NCBI GenBank assembly: GCA_038845975.1
Contig: JAWBQF010000024.1
Location: 1 to 40,214, forward strand
Direction: 5' to 3'
Source: Candidatus Methanomethylicia archaeon
GTDB taxonomy: Archaea > Thermoproteota > Methanomethylicia > CALHIW01
Length of the DNA: 40,214 nt
The position numbers and the translations under genes are program-made. Of the stretch, positions 1-29,269 are shown piece by piece (positions within the stretch are counted from its first letter, which is position 1; each line of letters begins with the position of its first letter). The notes under the pieces are model-generated. The model did not search any database. It saw only the letters and a program-made list of their open reading frames with translations, and was not told where the DNA came from.

Positions 1-489
1 CTAACAAACATAGCCAAAGAGCTACAATAAAAGCATACATATACAACACAATCATAAACCTATAAACACAAACCTAACACCAAAACAAAGAGCAAACACA
101 CAACAATAATTAAGCCACAAAGCTCAAATTAACAGAAAGCATAGATTCATTATGCTTTATCTTTAGAATCTAGAATAATAACTATTTTATTTTTAGGATT
201 TTACAGTAAGCAAATACATCGTTGATGTCCTTATATGTATAGGTTAACTAACTCCTACTGTGAAAGGATTTCATTGGGAACTCATGTAATTTTATCATTT
301 CCTTTTCATCCTCATCAAATTTGAAGTGTTGATTATCAAACACTAATTCGATCGATGAGAATTAGGTTTAAATATACTGAAAATCTCGTAATATTGAGGT
401 GCTAGAAGAGTTTAAAGTTTTTCACCTATATATTATGCATACTATACTTATTATGATATAGTAACATTAAATGTTATTATGACTAACAA

Positions 490-731
490 GGCTTTGTTGA
501 CTTAAGCATGTTTATTACCTATATTTTTGGTTTGTGTTTCTATGAATTCCTTAGCTTTATCTTTTTGTAATCCAGTTTGTTAGCTATACTATTGGTTTTA
601 TAAGATGGATACATGTTCACTATCACATTTATTCTCATGCATGGTATGTAGTTATCGAATAGTTTAATCCTTAATGTATTGTATGATTCTCTTCATTAAT
701 TCTAGTTAAACTATATCATGTTAACAAAGCC
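490..731. mobile_element. MITE (~242 bp) derived from the IS6-family element at 26064-26791
   Basis: Terminal inverted repeats GGCTTTGTTGAC (490) and GTTAACAAAGCC (ends 731). The body is colinear with ~26064-26310. No ORF. Confidence 0.8.
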
Positions 732-11114: not shown

Positions 11115-11879
11115 ATGTTTTACCTAGTTATACTTGGTACTGCAGGTTCAGGTAAAAGTACGCTTACTTCAACACTTTATGAATGGTTACTTGATCATGA
11201 ATTAACGGCAGCAACAGTAAACTTAGATCCAGGTGTTGAAGAATTACCATATACTCCTGATATTGACGTTAGAGAATTCATAGATATTCATGACATAATG
11301 TCAAAGTTTAGGCTTGGACCAAATGGTGCATTAATAGCATCAGTAGATTTTCTTGCCTCATATATTAATGAAATAAACATTTTAATAAATGAGATTGGAT
11401 CAGACTATGTAATTATAGATACACCTGGGCAAATGGAAATATTTGCATTTAGAGATGTCGGGCCATATATAATCTCAAACATTGCTAGAGGCAGAACATG
11501 TATAATATATCTTACGGATTCTTTCTTTGCAAGAAGTCCAAGTCAATTTGCATCAATAATGCTGCTTACAGCTTCAACTCAATTTAGATTTAATAAACCG
11601 CAAATCAATGTACTCTCAAAGTCGGATCTACTGAGTAAGAGTGATGTTGAGAGAACATTGATGTGGGTTGATGAGCCAGAAACACTATCTAATGCTATTG
11701 AGGAGGAAGTGAGAGGTATTAATAGGGAGCTATCATTAGCTCTTGCAAATTTGATATCTCATCTTGCCACTGTTTCTCACCTAATTCCTGTTTCATCGAT
11801 TAAAAATGAAGGGTTAGATGAGCTATACGCTGGGATTCAGAGAGTACTCTATGCTGGAGAAGATTATTTTACTGAGTAA
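11115..11879 (+). CDS. GPN-loop GTPase
   Basis: GTAGSGKS, NLDPG, LGPNG, DTPGQME, SKSD. Confidence 0.95.
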   Translation: MFYLVILGTAGSGKSTLTSTLYEWLLDHELTAATVNLDPGVEELPYTPDIDVREFIDIHDIMSKFRLGPNGALIASVDFLASYINEINILINEIGSDYVIIDTPGQMEIFAFRDVGPYIISNIARGRTCIIYLTDSFFARSPSQFASIMLLTASTQFRFNKPQINVLSKSDLLSKSDVERTLMWVDEPETLSNAIEEEVRGINRELSLALANLISHLATVSHLIPVSSIKNEGLDELYAGIQRVLYAGEDYFTE

Positions 11880-16512: not shown

Positions 16513-17943
16513 ATGCTTGGTAATTTTACTATCAATAATTCACATAGAAAATCTAAGTTAGAAGAAATGTCAACTCTAAATATATTGAGAGAGGTTCTAG
16601 AAAAAATAACACCTAGCACTAGTGAGAGACTTAAAGTTTCACGCATTATAAATGAGGTTAAGCAGAGAATCCTTAAGAAAGCGTATGAGTACGGTATTAA
16701 TGTTGAAATCAGTGTTGAAGGATCAATAGCTAAGGATACATGGCTTTCAAATGATAAGGATATTGATGTTTTTATTCATTTACCAAAAGAGTTAGGAAAT
16801 GAATCCCTAAAAACAGTTGGACTTGAAATTTGCAAATCTGCATGTGAAAACTGGATTGAGGCATACGCTGAACATCCATATATTCAGGCCAATATGAATG
16901 GATTTAAAGTTGACATTGTACCCGTATTTAAAATTAATAGTATAGATGAAGCCGAAACAGCGGTGGCTAGAACGCCGTTTCATACACGGTTTATAAACTC
17001 CAAGTTTAATAACTACATGAGGAAGGAAGTAAGAATATTAAAACAATTCATGAAAGGAACTGGAGTATATGGAGCTGAAATAAAAGTTAGAGGATTCTCA
17101 GGATATCTTTGTGAGCTACTTATATATAAGTATAAATCATTCACGAATTTGCTGGAAAATACTTCAAAGTGGAAACCATACCATGTAGTAATCGATCCTG
17201 CTAGACACTACAGTAACTTAAATGAGGTGAAAAAGATATTTGTGGATCCACTCATTGTTATCGATCCTGTTGATAAGAAAAGAAATGTAGCAGCCGCATT
17301 AAGTATTGATAAAATGTCAAGGTTCATTGCCGCATCAAGAGCATTTAAAGAAAACCCTAGCCTAAAGTTTTTCTTTCCAACTATTGATAGGATAACTAAG
17401 AATGAAATGATTAAAATAAGAAAAAAGGGCTTTAAAACATTATTTATAATTTTAAAATGTCCAAAATTAGCTCCTGACATACTATGGGGTGAAATCTTTA
17501 AATCCCTTGAAGGGCTTTCAACGTTGCTCGAAAAATACGACTTTAAAGTTCTAAGTAAAGATGCATGGAGTGATGAAAAAAACGTAGTGGTTTTAGCATT
17601 TCAGCTAGAAAGTATGAAAATACCCAGAATTAAGAAACATATCGGCCCACCCATATCTCTATGTGAAAGCGAGAAAAATTTTTTGAAAAAGAATATTTTA
17701 AGCAGGGATGTAGTATCTGGTCCATGTATTGAGAGGGATAGATGGGTTATTTATAAATTAAGAAGTATAACTAAAGCCGACGATCTTATACGTAATAAGT
17801 TTATGGAGGCTAAACATGGTCCTCACATTAAAACGCAAAATTTTGAAGTCGTAATAGATGAGAAAATACTTGATAAAATTGATACCGACGATTTTAGAAT
17901 TTTTCTAAAGAAATTTATGAGTAAGAAGGAAAACTGGATCTAA
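16513..17943 (+). CDS. cca: class I CCA-adding enzyme
   Basis: GSIAKDTWL..DIDVF, YAEHPY, RTPFH, GFSGYLCEL, DPVD..RNVAAA. True start may be downstream at MSTLNILRE. Confidence 0.96.
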   Translation: MLGNFTINNSHRKSKLEEMSTLNILREVLEKITPSTSERLKVSRIINEVKQRILKKAYEYGINVEISVEGSIAKDTWLSNDKDIDVFIHLPKELGNESLKTVGLEICKSACENWIEAYAEHPYIQANMNGFKVDIVPVFKINSIDEAETAVARTPFHTRFINSKFNNYMRKEVRILKQFMKGTGVYGAEIKVRGFSGYLCELLIYKYKSFTNLLENTSKWKPYHVVIDPARHYSNLNEVKKIFVDPLIVIDPVDKKRNVAAALSIDKMSRFIAASRAFKENPSLKFFFPTIDRITKNEMIKIRKKGFKTLFIILKCPKLAPDILWGEIFKSLEGLSTLLEKYDFKVLSKDAWSDEKNVVVLAFQLESMKIPRIKKHIGPPISLCESEKNFLKKNILSRDVVSGPCIERDRWVIYKLRSITKADDLIRNKFMEAKHGPHIKTQNFEVVIDEKILDKIDTDDFRIFLKKFMSKKENWI

Positions 17944-18019: not shown

Positions 18020-18433
18020 ATGGAGAAAAGAGAAATAAGTCTTAATGATAAGGATTTTGAATGTATTGAAGAAAAAGATCTAGTAGATTACCTAGAATCA
18101 TTAGATAGTAATATTAAAAATATTGTAAGCAACATTGAAGAGCTTAATAAGAAAACAGAAATGATGCAGGGAAGCCTAGACTTGGCCATAAAAATGATGG
18201 GGTCTATTTTAAAAAAGATGAAAATCATGACCTTAACGGTCAGAGGAAAAGAATCAATAATATTAGAAAATGATAAAAACTCAGAAATTAAGGATAAAAT
18301 AAACCAGATATTAGATATGTTAAACTACATAAAAAATCAGTATGGAATAAATGCAGAGTTAAAAAGCAGGGCCTCCAATGTTTCATTATTATTTAAAATA
18401 TTAAAAAAATTAAGAATTAAAAGCCAAACCTAA
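18020..18433 (+). CDS. hypothetical coiled-coil protein
   Basis: 137-aa ORF, K/E/N-rich with heptad pattern; no family recognised. Confidence 0.5.
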   Translation: MEKREISLNDKDFECIEEKDLVDYLESLDSNIKNIVSNIEELNKKTEMMQGSLDLAIKMMGSILKKMKIMTLTVRGKESIILENDKNSEIKDKINQILDMLNYIKNQYGINAELKSRASNVSLLFKILKKLRIKSQT

Positions 18434-18435
18434 AG

Positions 18436-18443
18436 TTTTTAAG
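18436..18443 (+). promoter_or_regulatory. TATA box of tRNA-Pro gene
   Basis: TTTTTAAG ~20-27 nt before 18463. Confidence 0.5.
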
Positions 18444-18476
18444 CAAAATTGCTAAGTATTTTGGGGCCGTCTTTAC

Positions 18477-18579
18477 GGGGCCGAATAAAGCTTAATCGTC
18501 CAGCTTGGGCTAGGATGCCATCATTAATGGTATAAGCCTGGGGCGCTGGTGGTCCGGGGTTCAAATCCCCGCGGCCCCA
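18477..18579 (+). tRNA. tRNA-Pro(GGG) with two non-canonical introns (18484-18495 at 7/8; 18521-18535 at 29/30)
   Basis: Spliced form folds as GGGGCCG TC GTCC AGCTTGGGCTA GGAT G CCAGC CT-GGG-GC GCTGG TGGTC CGGGG TTCAAAT CCCCG CGGCCCC A. CCA not encoded. Alternative 5' end at 18463. Confidence 0.92.
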
Positions 18580-18979
18580 CTAAAACTTCTAACTTAATTT
18601 TTCCAATAGTATCTCTTAGTGTGTTTCATAACCCTTAATGTCCTTTAATAAGCCCTGTGGGATTACCATCAGTGATGACATCAAATTAATGAAGGATCTA
18701 ATGCTAACAACAATCTTATTAAAGAGCAACCCTTAAAATATCCAATTTTAACTCTCTAGTTTTCCTCCACTTTATTAAATATTAAGCTAATATTAGCTGC
18801 CATATTGCTCTGACTATTTAAAGGTTAGAGGTGGATACTTAGGACGTAGCGATCTAATAAGTTTTCTGTTGCTAGTATTTGTCCTATTAACTTTGGATGC
18901 TACATCATTTCACTCTTTAATAAGTTCTCTGTAGTTACCGTTAGCGATAGCATTAAATTAATGGAGTGACTAATGTCAG

Positions 18980-19335
18980 GGCTTTGTTAACTTTAGCTTT
19001 ATTTGGTTTCTCTCTTCCTTATTTATGGTGTTAGTATGGTTAAATTTGTTAGGTTTGTAGGGAGAGAACTCCATTTACTCTAGTTGTTATGGTGCTTATA
19101 TATATTTTCGTTCATGTTCTTCTAGAATGGCTTCAGATATTTTAGGCTTCATTATTGCTAGAAGCTATGTATCTGTATTGTCGTGGTTTAGGTCTTTAAG
19201 CTTCCTATTTGAATTTGATAAAAGAGATGTTAGGATTGTATGGTTAATGATACTATCATTAATGTAGGCTCTATGAAGAAAATTATATATATTGTTTTCG
19301 AGCCATTATTGAGGAGTATTCTATATTAGATGTTG
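18980..19335 (+). mobile_element. 5' half of IS6-family element
   Basis: Starts with TIR GGCTTTGTTAACTTTAG; colinear with the reverse complement of ~26791-26455 (shared GGGAGAGAACTCCATTTACTCTAGTTGTTATGGTGCTTA). Confidence 0.85.
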
Positions 19336-19400
19336 AAAATGGTTTAGAGCATTTAGTAGTAAATTACTTAAAGTATAGCAATATATTACTATGAGTAATT

Positions 19401-27898: not shown

Positions 27899-29269
27899 GT
27901 GAAAAAAGCCACTGTTGAAGAACTTTTAGCTAAAGCATATAAACCATCTAAACTTGCTCCTGCTTATCATAAGTTTTACGGAGGAAAGGTTCAGGTGATG
28001 GCTAAATGTATTATTAGGGATCTATCAGATTTTGATATTTGGTATACGCCAGGTGTAGCTGAGCCATGTAGGATCATAAATAAAGATGAGGAAGCATCTT
28101 TTGAATATACAAGCAGGTGGAATTACGTGGCTGTTGTTAGTGATGGAAGTAGAGTTCTTGGGCTTGGAAATATAGGTGGAATGGCTGGATTACCGGTTAT
28201 GGAAGGAAAGGCATTACTATTCAAGTATTTAGGTGGAGTTGATGCATTTCCATTATGTCTTAGTACCCAGAACCCTGATGATATTATTACAGCTTGTAAA
28301 TGGATTGAGCCAACATTTGGAGGAATAAACCTTGAAGATATAGAGAAACCTAAATGCTTCTATGTTCTTGAAAAAGCAAGAGAAAATTTAGAAATTCCTG
28401 TATGGCATGATGATCAACAAGGAACTGCAACAGTAGTTCTTGCAGGTGTTTTAAATGCACTTAAACTTGTAGGTAAGAAAATCGATGAAGTAAGTATAGC
28501 AATGATTGGAGCTGGTGCTGCAAACATTAAATGTGCTGATGTACTTGAGTTGGCAGGGGCAAAGCCAGGAAATATTATCATGGTTGATAGTAAAGGAACT
28601 CTAGGTCCTTGGAGAGAAGATATAATTAAGAAAGAGAATGATCCCTGGAAATGGAAATGGGCTCAGAAAAGCAATGCTGAAAAAAGAGAAGGAGGAATGC
28701 CGGAAGCTATGAAAGGGGCTGATGTTGTAATAGCTATGTCACGCCCAGGTCCAGGTGTTATAAAGAAGGAATGGTTTACATTGATGAATACTAATGCTAT
28801 AGCTTTTCTCTGCGCGAACCCTATTCCTGAAGCATGGCCTTGGGAGGCGAAGGAAGCAGGGGTGAAAATTGTTGGAACTGGTAGAAGCGACTTTCCAAAT
28901 CAAATAAACAATTCTCTAGGATTTCCAGCAATATTTAGAGGAGTACTTGATGTAAGAGCTAAAACAGTAACAGATGAAATGTGCGTTGCTGCAGCAGTAG
29001 AACTTGCAAGATTTGCTGAAGAAAGAGGGATAAATGAAGACAATATAGTACCAAAAATGACTGAATGGGAAGTATATCCGAGAGTGGCTGTTGCATGTGC
29101 CTTAAAATCAATCGAGCAGGGAGTAGCTAGGATAAAACCAAGCAAACAAGAACTTTGGGAAAGAGCAGTTAAAATAATTAGAGAAGCAAGAGAATCTGTA
29201 GAAGCACTAATAAGAGCCGGAATCATTAAACAGCCACCACCAGAAGAAGAAATACTTAAAACCACATAA
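27899..29269 (+). CDS. NAD(P)-dependent malic enzyme
   Basis: YTPGVA, VLGLGNIG, PVMEGK, GGINLEDI, HDDQQGT, GAGAA, TGRSDFPNQINN. Confidence 0.96.
   Translation: MKKATVEELLAKAYKPSKLAPAYHKFYGGKVQVMAKCIIRDLSDFDIWYTPGVAEPCRIINKDEEASFEYTSRWNYVAVVSDGSRVLGLGNIGGMAGLPVMEGKALLFKYLGGVDAFPLCLSTQNPDDIITACKWIEPTFGGINLEDIEKPKCFYVLEKARENLEIPVWHDDQQGTATVVLAGVLNALKLVGKKIDEVSIAMIGAGAANIKCADVLELAGAKPGNIIMVDSKGTLGPWREDIIKKENDPWKWKWAQKSNAEKREGGMPEAMKGADVVIAMSRPGPGVIKKEWFTLMNTNAIAFLCANPIPEAWPWEAKEAGVKIVGTGRSDFPNQINNSLGFPAIFRGVLDVRAKTVTDEMCVAAAVELARFAEERGINEDNIVPKMTEWEVYPRVAVACALKSIEQGVARIKPSKQELWERAVKIIREARESVEALIRAGIIKQPPPEEEILKTT

Follow-up and report, generated by a model that had tools for sequence, protein, structure and literature searches.

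A conserved same-sense copy of the 5' acceptor strand in the leader of an archaeal tRNA-Pro(GGG) gene with an intron at position 7/8: a candidate surrogate strand for splicing

Archaeal tRNA introns are thought to require just a local bulge-helix-bulge (BHB) motif. The splicing of introns in or next to the acceptor stem is a puzzle, because a motif formed there destroys the helix that holds the 5' exon. This question is raised by a tRNA-Pro(GGG) gene in a 40,214-nucleotide stretch of DNA (the window) from a Candidatus Methanomethylicia archaeon. One intron of the gene directly follows the 5' acceptor strand, and a second, same-sense copy of that strand is found in the 5' leader. How could such an intron be recognised while the tiny 5' exon is kept in place, and could the spare strand have a part in it? 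In the following, the genome of the window is referred to as G000 and its sister genome as G001, while L264, L281 and L245 are metagenome loci.

Anatomy of the gene and its splicing motifs

The tRNA-Pro(GGG) gene covers 18477-18579 and contains two introns, one of 12 nt between tRNA positions 7 and 8 (7/8) and one of 15 nt at 29/30. Together with the leader, 18463-18579 appears to form one transcription unit, which would give an essential-looking tRNA-Pro(GGG) after removal of two introns of the endonuclease type (Table 1). The preliminary description of this DNA had located the two occurrences of GGGGCCG exactly to the base, and in the window sequence the insert AATAAAGCTTAA and the following T8 (18496) are also where it had placed them. 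Removal of 18484-95 and 18521-35 gives GGGGCCG-TC-GTCC..., a tRNA-Pro(GGG) for which inspection reveals a cloverleaf with the anticodon GGG, G37, a GGGGCCG/CGGCCCC acceptor stem and A73; CCA is not encoded in the G000 gene. The exons are collinear inside 117 nt behind a single promoter-like box, which rules out a split or permuted tRNA gene.

Table 1. Features of the tRNA-Pro(GGG) gene and its leader in the window
Feature	Position	Strand	Remarks
TATA-like box TTTTTAAG of the tRNA gene	18436-18443	+	Found by word search; putative function
Upstream copy, GGGGCCG, in the same sense as the 5' acceptor strand	18463-18469	+	Proposed surrogate strand in the 5' leader
Spacer TCTTTAC	18470-18476	+	Final two bases and G1 form a 3-bp outer helix with C9, G10 and T11
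Exon 1, true 5' acceptor strand	18477-18483	+	tRNA nt 1-7
Intron 1, 12 nt, at 7/8	18484-18495	+	Relaxed hBH motif; central helix GGGC/GCTT; 3' bulge AA/T
Exon 2	18496-18520	+	nt 8-29 (U8, D arm, 5' part of the anticodon stem)
Intron 2, 15 nt, at 29/30	18521-18535	+	Strict hBHBh' motif with ATGC/GTAT as its central helix, between an outer helix of 5 bp and an inner one of 2 bp
Exon 3	18536-18579	+	nt 30-73; anticodon GGG 18540-42; T arm 18555-71
3' acceptor strand CGGCCCC	18572-18578	+	Discriminator A at 18579

The gene was compared with its orthologs in 62 genomes of the class, in which 28 loci were found and 26 of them were read, the other two being without a T-loop by script; the order and family of the window comprise only G000 and G001. 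With both introns out, the gene has the same sequence as the intronless orthologs, which in all 26 class relatives read GGGGCCGTCGTC... or GGGGCCGTAGTC... without interruption, and against one of them (L026) the spliced gene showed four differences, one in the D stem and three in the D loop. Thus, intron 1 is missing in 26 out of 26 of these relatives, and intron 2 is likewise missing from the class relatives and is identical in G001. In many of the relatives (L026-L053), the discriminator base of tRNA-Pro(GGG) is followed by an encoded CCA, which is absent from G000 and G001. The standard tools do not detect the gene: ARAGORN does not call it, also with introns allowed, Rfam gave no match at the gathering threshold, and the model RF00005 scored only 18.6 bits on the 3' part. 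In E-value mode an Rfam tRNA-clan model aligned to 18477-18582, starting at the true exon 1.

Splicing motifs were enumerated by a rule that pairs exon nt n-5..n-2 with intron nt last-5..last-2 in a 4-bp helix and asks for 3-nt bulges and flanking helices. The relaxed classes hBH and HBh', as defined in section 4.8 of bioRxiv 10.64898/2026.10.13.758758, place the 3' site in a 3-nt bulge and ask for one or more flanking helices of at least 2 bp. For intron 1, the enumeration returned the bulge-helix-loop that had been proposed earlier, with cuts at exactly 7/8, a full central helix (4/4), an outer helix of 3 bp and no inner helix. The outer helix joins ACG (18475-77) to CGT (18497-99), the central helix joins GGGC (18478-81) to GCTT (18490-93) by two G.U and two G-C pairs, and the 3' bulge AAT is 18494-96. 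As the G000 motif has no inner helix, the 5' splice site lies in an 8-nt loop. Intron 1 of G000 is accordingly outside the strict hBHBh' class, in which intron 2 and the 7/8 intron of G062, a Nitrososphaerota MAG that looks unrelated, were placed (in G062 the outer helix has 5 bp and the inner helix 2 bp), and in both G000 and G001 it falls into the relaxed class with a 4/4 central and a 3-bp outer helix.

The motif is maintained in G000, G001 and L264 by changes that preserve pairing, which supports the 12-nt intron at 7/8 that uses the downstream copy. Opposite GGGC, the intron contributes GCTT to the central helix in G000, GCCT in G001 and GCCC in L264, and the last two spacer bases of the outer helix are AC, AC and AT, respectively; pairing is kept throughout.

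G000 encodes two EndA paralogs (PF01974; C1:60193-60450 and C30:24213-24473) with open frames of 188 and 182 aa, and this is consistent with a heterotetrameric (alpha2-beta2) enzyme that accepts relaxed motifs. The RNase P protein Rpp29 is encoded at C28:24062-24304, and therefore RNase P-free, leaderless maturation is not supported. For the same reason, the fact that the archaeal RNase P RNA model RF00373 had no match in G000 (93% complete) does not count as evidence of absence.

Recurrence and conservation of the leader copy

A scan of the whole of G000 for T arms, combined with one for sequences that could pair with each 3' acceptor strand, gave 36 tRNA genes. In seven of them the intron motif uses the acceptor strand or the leader (introns at 3/4 to 10/11), which left 29 other genes. 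Six of the seven genes with a 5'-proximal intron and none of the 29 others have a leader 7-mer able to pair over its full length (7/7) with the 3' acceptor strand of the same gene (Fisher exact p ~4e-6), and the chance rate of such pairing was 0.28% of random 30-nt windows in G000. The six genes are those of tRNA-Pro(GGG) with its intron at 7/8, tRNA-Pro(TGG) at 3/4, tRNA-Lys(TTT) and tRNA-Met(CAT), both at 9/10, and tRNA-Gln(TTG) and tRNA-Gln(CTG), both at 10/11; for the seventh, tRNA-Trp with an intron at 3/4, the best leader 7-mer pairs 5/7, a partial copy. The six copies are located 8-14 nt 5' of +1, read GGGGCCG, GGGCTCG, GGGCCTG, AGCCCGG (twice) and GGGGCTG, and belong to four different acceptor sequences. 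The upstream GGGGCCG is no chance repeat.

In most ordinary tRNA genes of G000, a TATA-like word starts at a distance of 27-30 nt upstream of the mature +1. In tRNA-Pro(GGG) and four of the five other copy-bearing genes, such words are 27-29 nt from the copy and not from the true +1, while the word search gave no TATA-like word for tRNA-Gln(CTG). Since the spacing from the copy equals the ordinary spacing from +1, the copy is probably the very 5' end of the transcript.

Within four tRNAs, the copy is identical between G000 and G001 at 28 out of 28 positions, while all four spacers are altered, two of them by indels (tctttac to ttttcac, ggggag to ga, aaggggt to aagagggggt and ga to aa). This pattern suggests that the copy is under purifying selection. 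The tRNA-Pro(GGG) copy GGGGCCG is the same in G001 and L264, and the spacer varies at four of its seven positions across G000, G001 and L264. The upstream repeat had been described as identical to the spliced nt 1-9; this is true of G000, but in G001 the identity is 8/9. Conservation in relatives, which the preliminary description had named as a test, was found in that the copy is kept in G001, L264 and G062. The tRNA-Pro gene of G062 has the same layout as that of G000, namely the copy, an 8-nt spacer, the true strand and a 15-nt intron at 7/8, and those G062 tRNA genes in the T-loop scan list that have no 5'-proximal intron carry no copy within 30 nt.

A broader picture was obtained from tRNA-Gln by searching 401 genomes of the phylum with a pattern of 5' strand, insert and D-arm start in which the copy was not required. 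Of 36 matches, 34 were tRNA-Gln genes with an intron at 10/11 and two were not tRNAs. The leader element was present in all 34, which represent several to many families: an exact copy in the same orientation precedes 26 of them by 1-12 nt (matched by coordinates), five have GGCCCGG, which pairs 7/7 via G.U (A1>G opposite U72), and three pair 6/7. A separate reading of 30 loci found 17 tRNA-Gln genes, all 17 with the intron. As the compared genomes are relatives, counts of this kind overstate the independence of the cases.

The link between copy and intron is not complete in either direction. An unconditioned metagenome scan, from which 80 loci were read, revealed at least three tRNA-Pro genes with 7/8 introns among the matches listed. 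L264 has the copy at -14 and L281 has GGGGCTG at -34, but in L245, whose intron forms an inner helix of 5 bp, the copy is absent; the copy is therefore no absolute requirement. Conversely, tRNA-Pro(GGG) of three Acidilobaceae/Desulfurococcales MAGs (L082, L085 and L097) has GGGGCCG and a 6-nt spacer before GGGGCCGTCGTC with no 7/8 intron, only a canonical one, and this could be a relic or a pre-adaptation. The tRNA-Gln genes of G213 and G148 also have a copy but no 5'-proximal intron, their introns being elsewhere in the gene. The earlier proposal of a splicing-linked copy is thus supported in part, in the conservation and recurrence of the copy and in its tie to 5'-proximal introns.

Other repeats of exon-like sequence were seen during the scans. 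The tRNA-Glu(CTC) gene of G000 (C50 ~11690-11790, + strand) has a D-arm intron of ~27 nt that contains GCTTTGG; this 7-mer pairs 7/7 with the gene's own 3' acceptor strand via G.U and is conserved in G001 (L005), and no convincing BHB motif was found for that intron. D-loop introns at C21 ~28466-28580 (- strand) and C43 ~385-505 (+ strand) repeat an exon stretch, for example GGCTAGATCT ... GGCTAATCTGG. Exon-like copies beside introns may be a wider habit of the lineage. In L190 (G232:C7), a tRNA with the acceptor strand GGGCCCG has AGCCCGG repeated across a D-loop insert. At C10:266-350 (-), C43:416-504 (+) and C57:547-656 (-), G000 apparently has two different tRNA-Pro(TGG)-like genes and one more, to which ARAGORN gives the anticodon AGG. 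As the contamination of G000 is 4%, one of them may be foreign or misread. Finally, the GNRA-type hairpin AGCCGGGCGAAAGCCCGGT is exactly conserved in dozens of genomes of the phylum (e.g. G275:C9:29949-29967) and is presumably part of another structured RNA.

A proposed role for the copy and its alternatives

Beside the observed anatomy, recurrence, conservation and pairing-preserving substitutions, we set the following model, to which we give a probability of about 0.6. The leader copy would act as a surrogate acceptor strand that holds the 3' strand while the true 5' strand forms the splicing motif and, because it occupies the 3' acceptor strand, it would also tether the tiny 5' exon. From the sequences we infer that this pairing occurs in vivo, that the copy serves as tether and decoy, and that the events follow the order given here. 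The 7/8 intron could be recognised only if nt 1-7 leave the acceptor stem, so that their GGGC can pair with the intron GCTT and, together with the last spacer bases, they can pair with nt 9-11. Without a surrogate, the 3' acceptor strand would be naked and, after cleavage, the 5' exon would hang on only 3 bp. Sitting where an ordinary tRNA gene has its +1, the copy would form 7 bp with the 3' strand and so build a surrogate acceptor stem. Such a stem would remove the competitor of the splicing motif, would tether the 5' fragment (copy, spacer and nt 1-7) through cleavage and ligation in a hot-spring organism, and would preserve the acceptor/T minihelix for the end-processing enzymes. After ligation, the true strand would reclaim the 3' strand, a switch that would need the tertiary structure or RNase P as its driver, and RNase P would then remove the copy and the spacer.

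The model depends on the partner of the copy. The copy is complementary 7/7 to CGGCCCC (18572-78), and where copies and true strands differ, 10 out of 12 differences, five C>T and five A1>G, leave the pairing with the 3' strand intact, while the two that break it are both at the terminal position 1. Since conservation extends over the whole 7-mer, of which only the self-complementary core would be able to bind the true strand, the evidence favours the 3' acceptor strand as the partner. Folding was less informative. In minimum-energy folds at 37 C the copy is paired with the 3' strand in six out of six cases, and its ensemble probability of doing so is at least 0.9 in four out of five pre-tRNAs at 37, 60 and 80 C, both of which are weak evidence; at 60 and 80 C, the true stem is favoured in tRNA-Gln(CTG). 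The preference for the copy remains after in-silico removal of the 5' intron, so it is a generic property of the outermost helix, and folding was discarded as a discriminating test. In the minimum-energy fold of tRNA-Pro(GGG), the freed true strand pairs elsewhere and the GGGC/GCTT motif is not formed.

The copies contain self-complementary cores (GGCC, CCGG or GGGCCC), through which they might bind the true 5' strand instead of the 3' strand, and a leader hairpin formed in this way might delay formation of the acceptor stem or the action of RNase P. The Lys and Met copies could indeed make 6-bp hairpins, in which the C>T changes would be tolerated too, but the Pro (GGGGCCG) and Gln (AGCCCGG) copies are limited to 4 bp and are nevertheless conserved over the full 7-mer, including position 1, where A>G retains a G.U pair with U72; we regard this reading as quite improbable. 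A passive origin, in which the copy is a by-product of the origin of the intron (a small tandem duplication of the 5' end or an ancestral +1 left behind) and has no role in splicing, is unlikely but deserves more weight. It would account for the promoter at the normal distance from the copy, as if from an old +1, for the copies without a 5'-proximal intron and for the copy-free 7/8 intron of L245. A passively carried sequence is difficult to reconcile with 28 unchanged positions next to four changed spacers, with an element kept in all 34 tRNA-Gln genes of many families across spacers of 1-12 nt and unrelated sequence, and with the 10 differences out of 12 that maintain pairing with the 3' strand.

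The preliminary description had also offered a gene that starts at 18463 and has a 26-nt intron (18470-18495) that includes the second copy, with an identical product. The TATA spacing suits a +1 at 18463, the upstream GGGC can pair with the same GCTT, and in G001 this gives a formal hBHBh' motif with an outer helix of 2 bp and an inner helix of 3 bp. Yet in G000 the motif has an outer helix of 2 bp and no inner helix, and none passed the filter in G062, so that this option came out as the weaker one, while the downstream-copy motif is supported in G000, G001, L264 and G062. It does not extend to the other genes either: the analogous cut in Lys and Met would leave GG at positions 8-9 instead of U8 A9, the central helix fails in Gln, and in none of these three does U8 come after the upstream copy. 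We therefore consider it improbable. As standard tRNA finders do not see the locus, it might be suspected of being a dead pseudogene or a product of misassembly, but this is exceedingly improbable. The same structure was found in G001 and in the metagenome contig L264, the exons agree with the relatives and the introns are at proper motifs, synteny with G001 is kept, and the T-loop scan of G000 found no second gene with a GGG anticodon loop. The stretch is present in hot-spring metagenome runs, with no RNA run among those listed, and 0.96 of the sampled words recur in runs X2-X9, from four studies besides the possible source. An assembly artefact, raised earlier as a possible refutation, is thus contradicted by the independent occurrence of the layout in G001, in L264 and in the runs of other studies.

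The possibility that a tiny intron separates the copies was tried and rejected. For Lys, Met and Gln, no motif with a full central helix (4/4) brings the copies together with the correct product, and with a GGCC/GGCC helix between the Pro copies the cut would fall at the wrong place.

The tRNA gene has a CCA-adding enzyme gene and a SepCysS-like gene as neighbours, in the same gene order in G001. The CCA-adding enzyme gene (16513-17943) is ~0.5 kb upstream. An ORF of 137 aa (18020-18433, + strand) without a Pfam match ends 3 nt before the TATA-like box and is conserved with G001 at the DNA level. Downstream, 18580-19352 (~770 nt) is without an ORF of at least 60 aa and is not alignable to G001, where the gap is ~370 nt, while both flanks of this stretch align to G001 at 88-92%. 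A mobile-element origin was rejected, as no nuclease or integrase domain is found beside the gene and synteny with G001 is intact. Partial duplicates of tRNA genes at the borders of integrated elements are known as att sites (described in PMC3293823), and the present copy resembles them in being a same-sense partial copy of the tRNA 5' end upstream of the gene. However, att duplications comprise tens of nt at the edge of an insert, whereas the repeat here is only 7-9 nt long and 7 nt away, there is no integrase, and the gene order is that of G001, so an att-site duplication was rejected as well.

Relation to known tRNA genes and meaning

Non-canonical BHB tRNA introns are described for Thermoproteales and other Thermoproteota, with 3/4 as an extreme position (PMC4090602, citing Sugahara 2008). 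The introns described here resemble them in being of the protein-spliced type with a 4-bp helix and 3-nt bulges, in the presence of multiple introns per gene, in the relaxed hBH form and in the two EndA paralogs encoded. The difference is the leader copy of the acceptor strand, which the parts of the sources consulted do not mention for those introns. Position 7/8, which the preliminary description had not counted among the common ones, is not among the positions given in the text consulted of PMC4090602.

A closer parallel to the proposed tether is provided by split tRNAs. In Nanoarchaeum equitans, Caldivirga and Staphylothermus, tRNA halves are joined by means of GC-rich leader and trailer helices and BHB motifs, as described in passages of PMC4090602, PMC4033280 and PMC3218864. 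There too, an extra helix outside the mature tRNA holds the pieces for the endonuclease and the ligase. In contrast to the split genes, the helix proposed here would act in cis within one transcript, would use the tRNA's own 3' acceptor strand together with a decoy of its partner, and the decoy would have to be displaced later and trimmed. A leader copy of the acceptor strand was not found mentioned in the parts consulted of PMC4090602, PMC4033280, PMC3218864, PMC3293823, PMC8450103 and bioRxiv 10.64898/2026.10.13.758758.

If the proposed model is true, the conserved spare acceptor strand would be a second, non-local requirement for splicing. It yields a testable folding pathway, from decoy stem through splicing and strand exchange to RNase P cleavage. 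The copy would also allow hidden 5'-proximal introns to be found by a simple rule where standard annotators overlook them, as they do in this gene, which is invisible to ARAGORN and at the Rfam thresholds. Tentatively, and with a little less than even confidence, we suggest that leader-encoded surrogate strands are a general cis-acting device of archaea. They would make the junction of the acceptor stem and the D arm habitable for introns by holding the 3' strand, tethering a 5' exon of 3-10 nt through cleavage and ligation and imposing splicing before RNase P, and would have persisted in tRNA-Gln across much of Thermoproteota. Copies without introns would then mark intron loss, or a pre-adaptation that preceded intron gain, and the spare strands would offer a handle on the spread of intron positions in intron-rich lineages.
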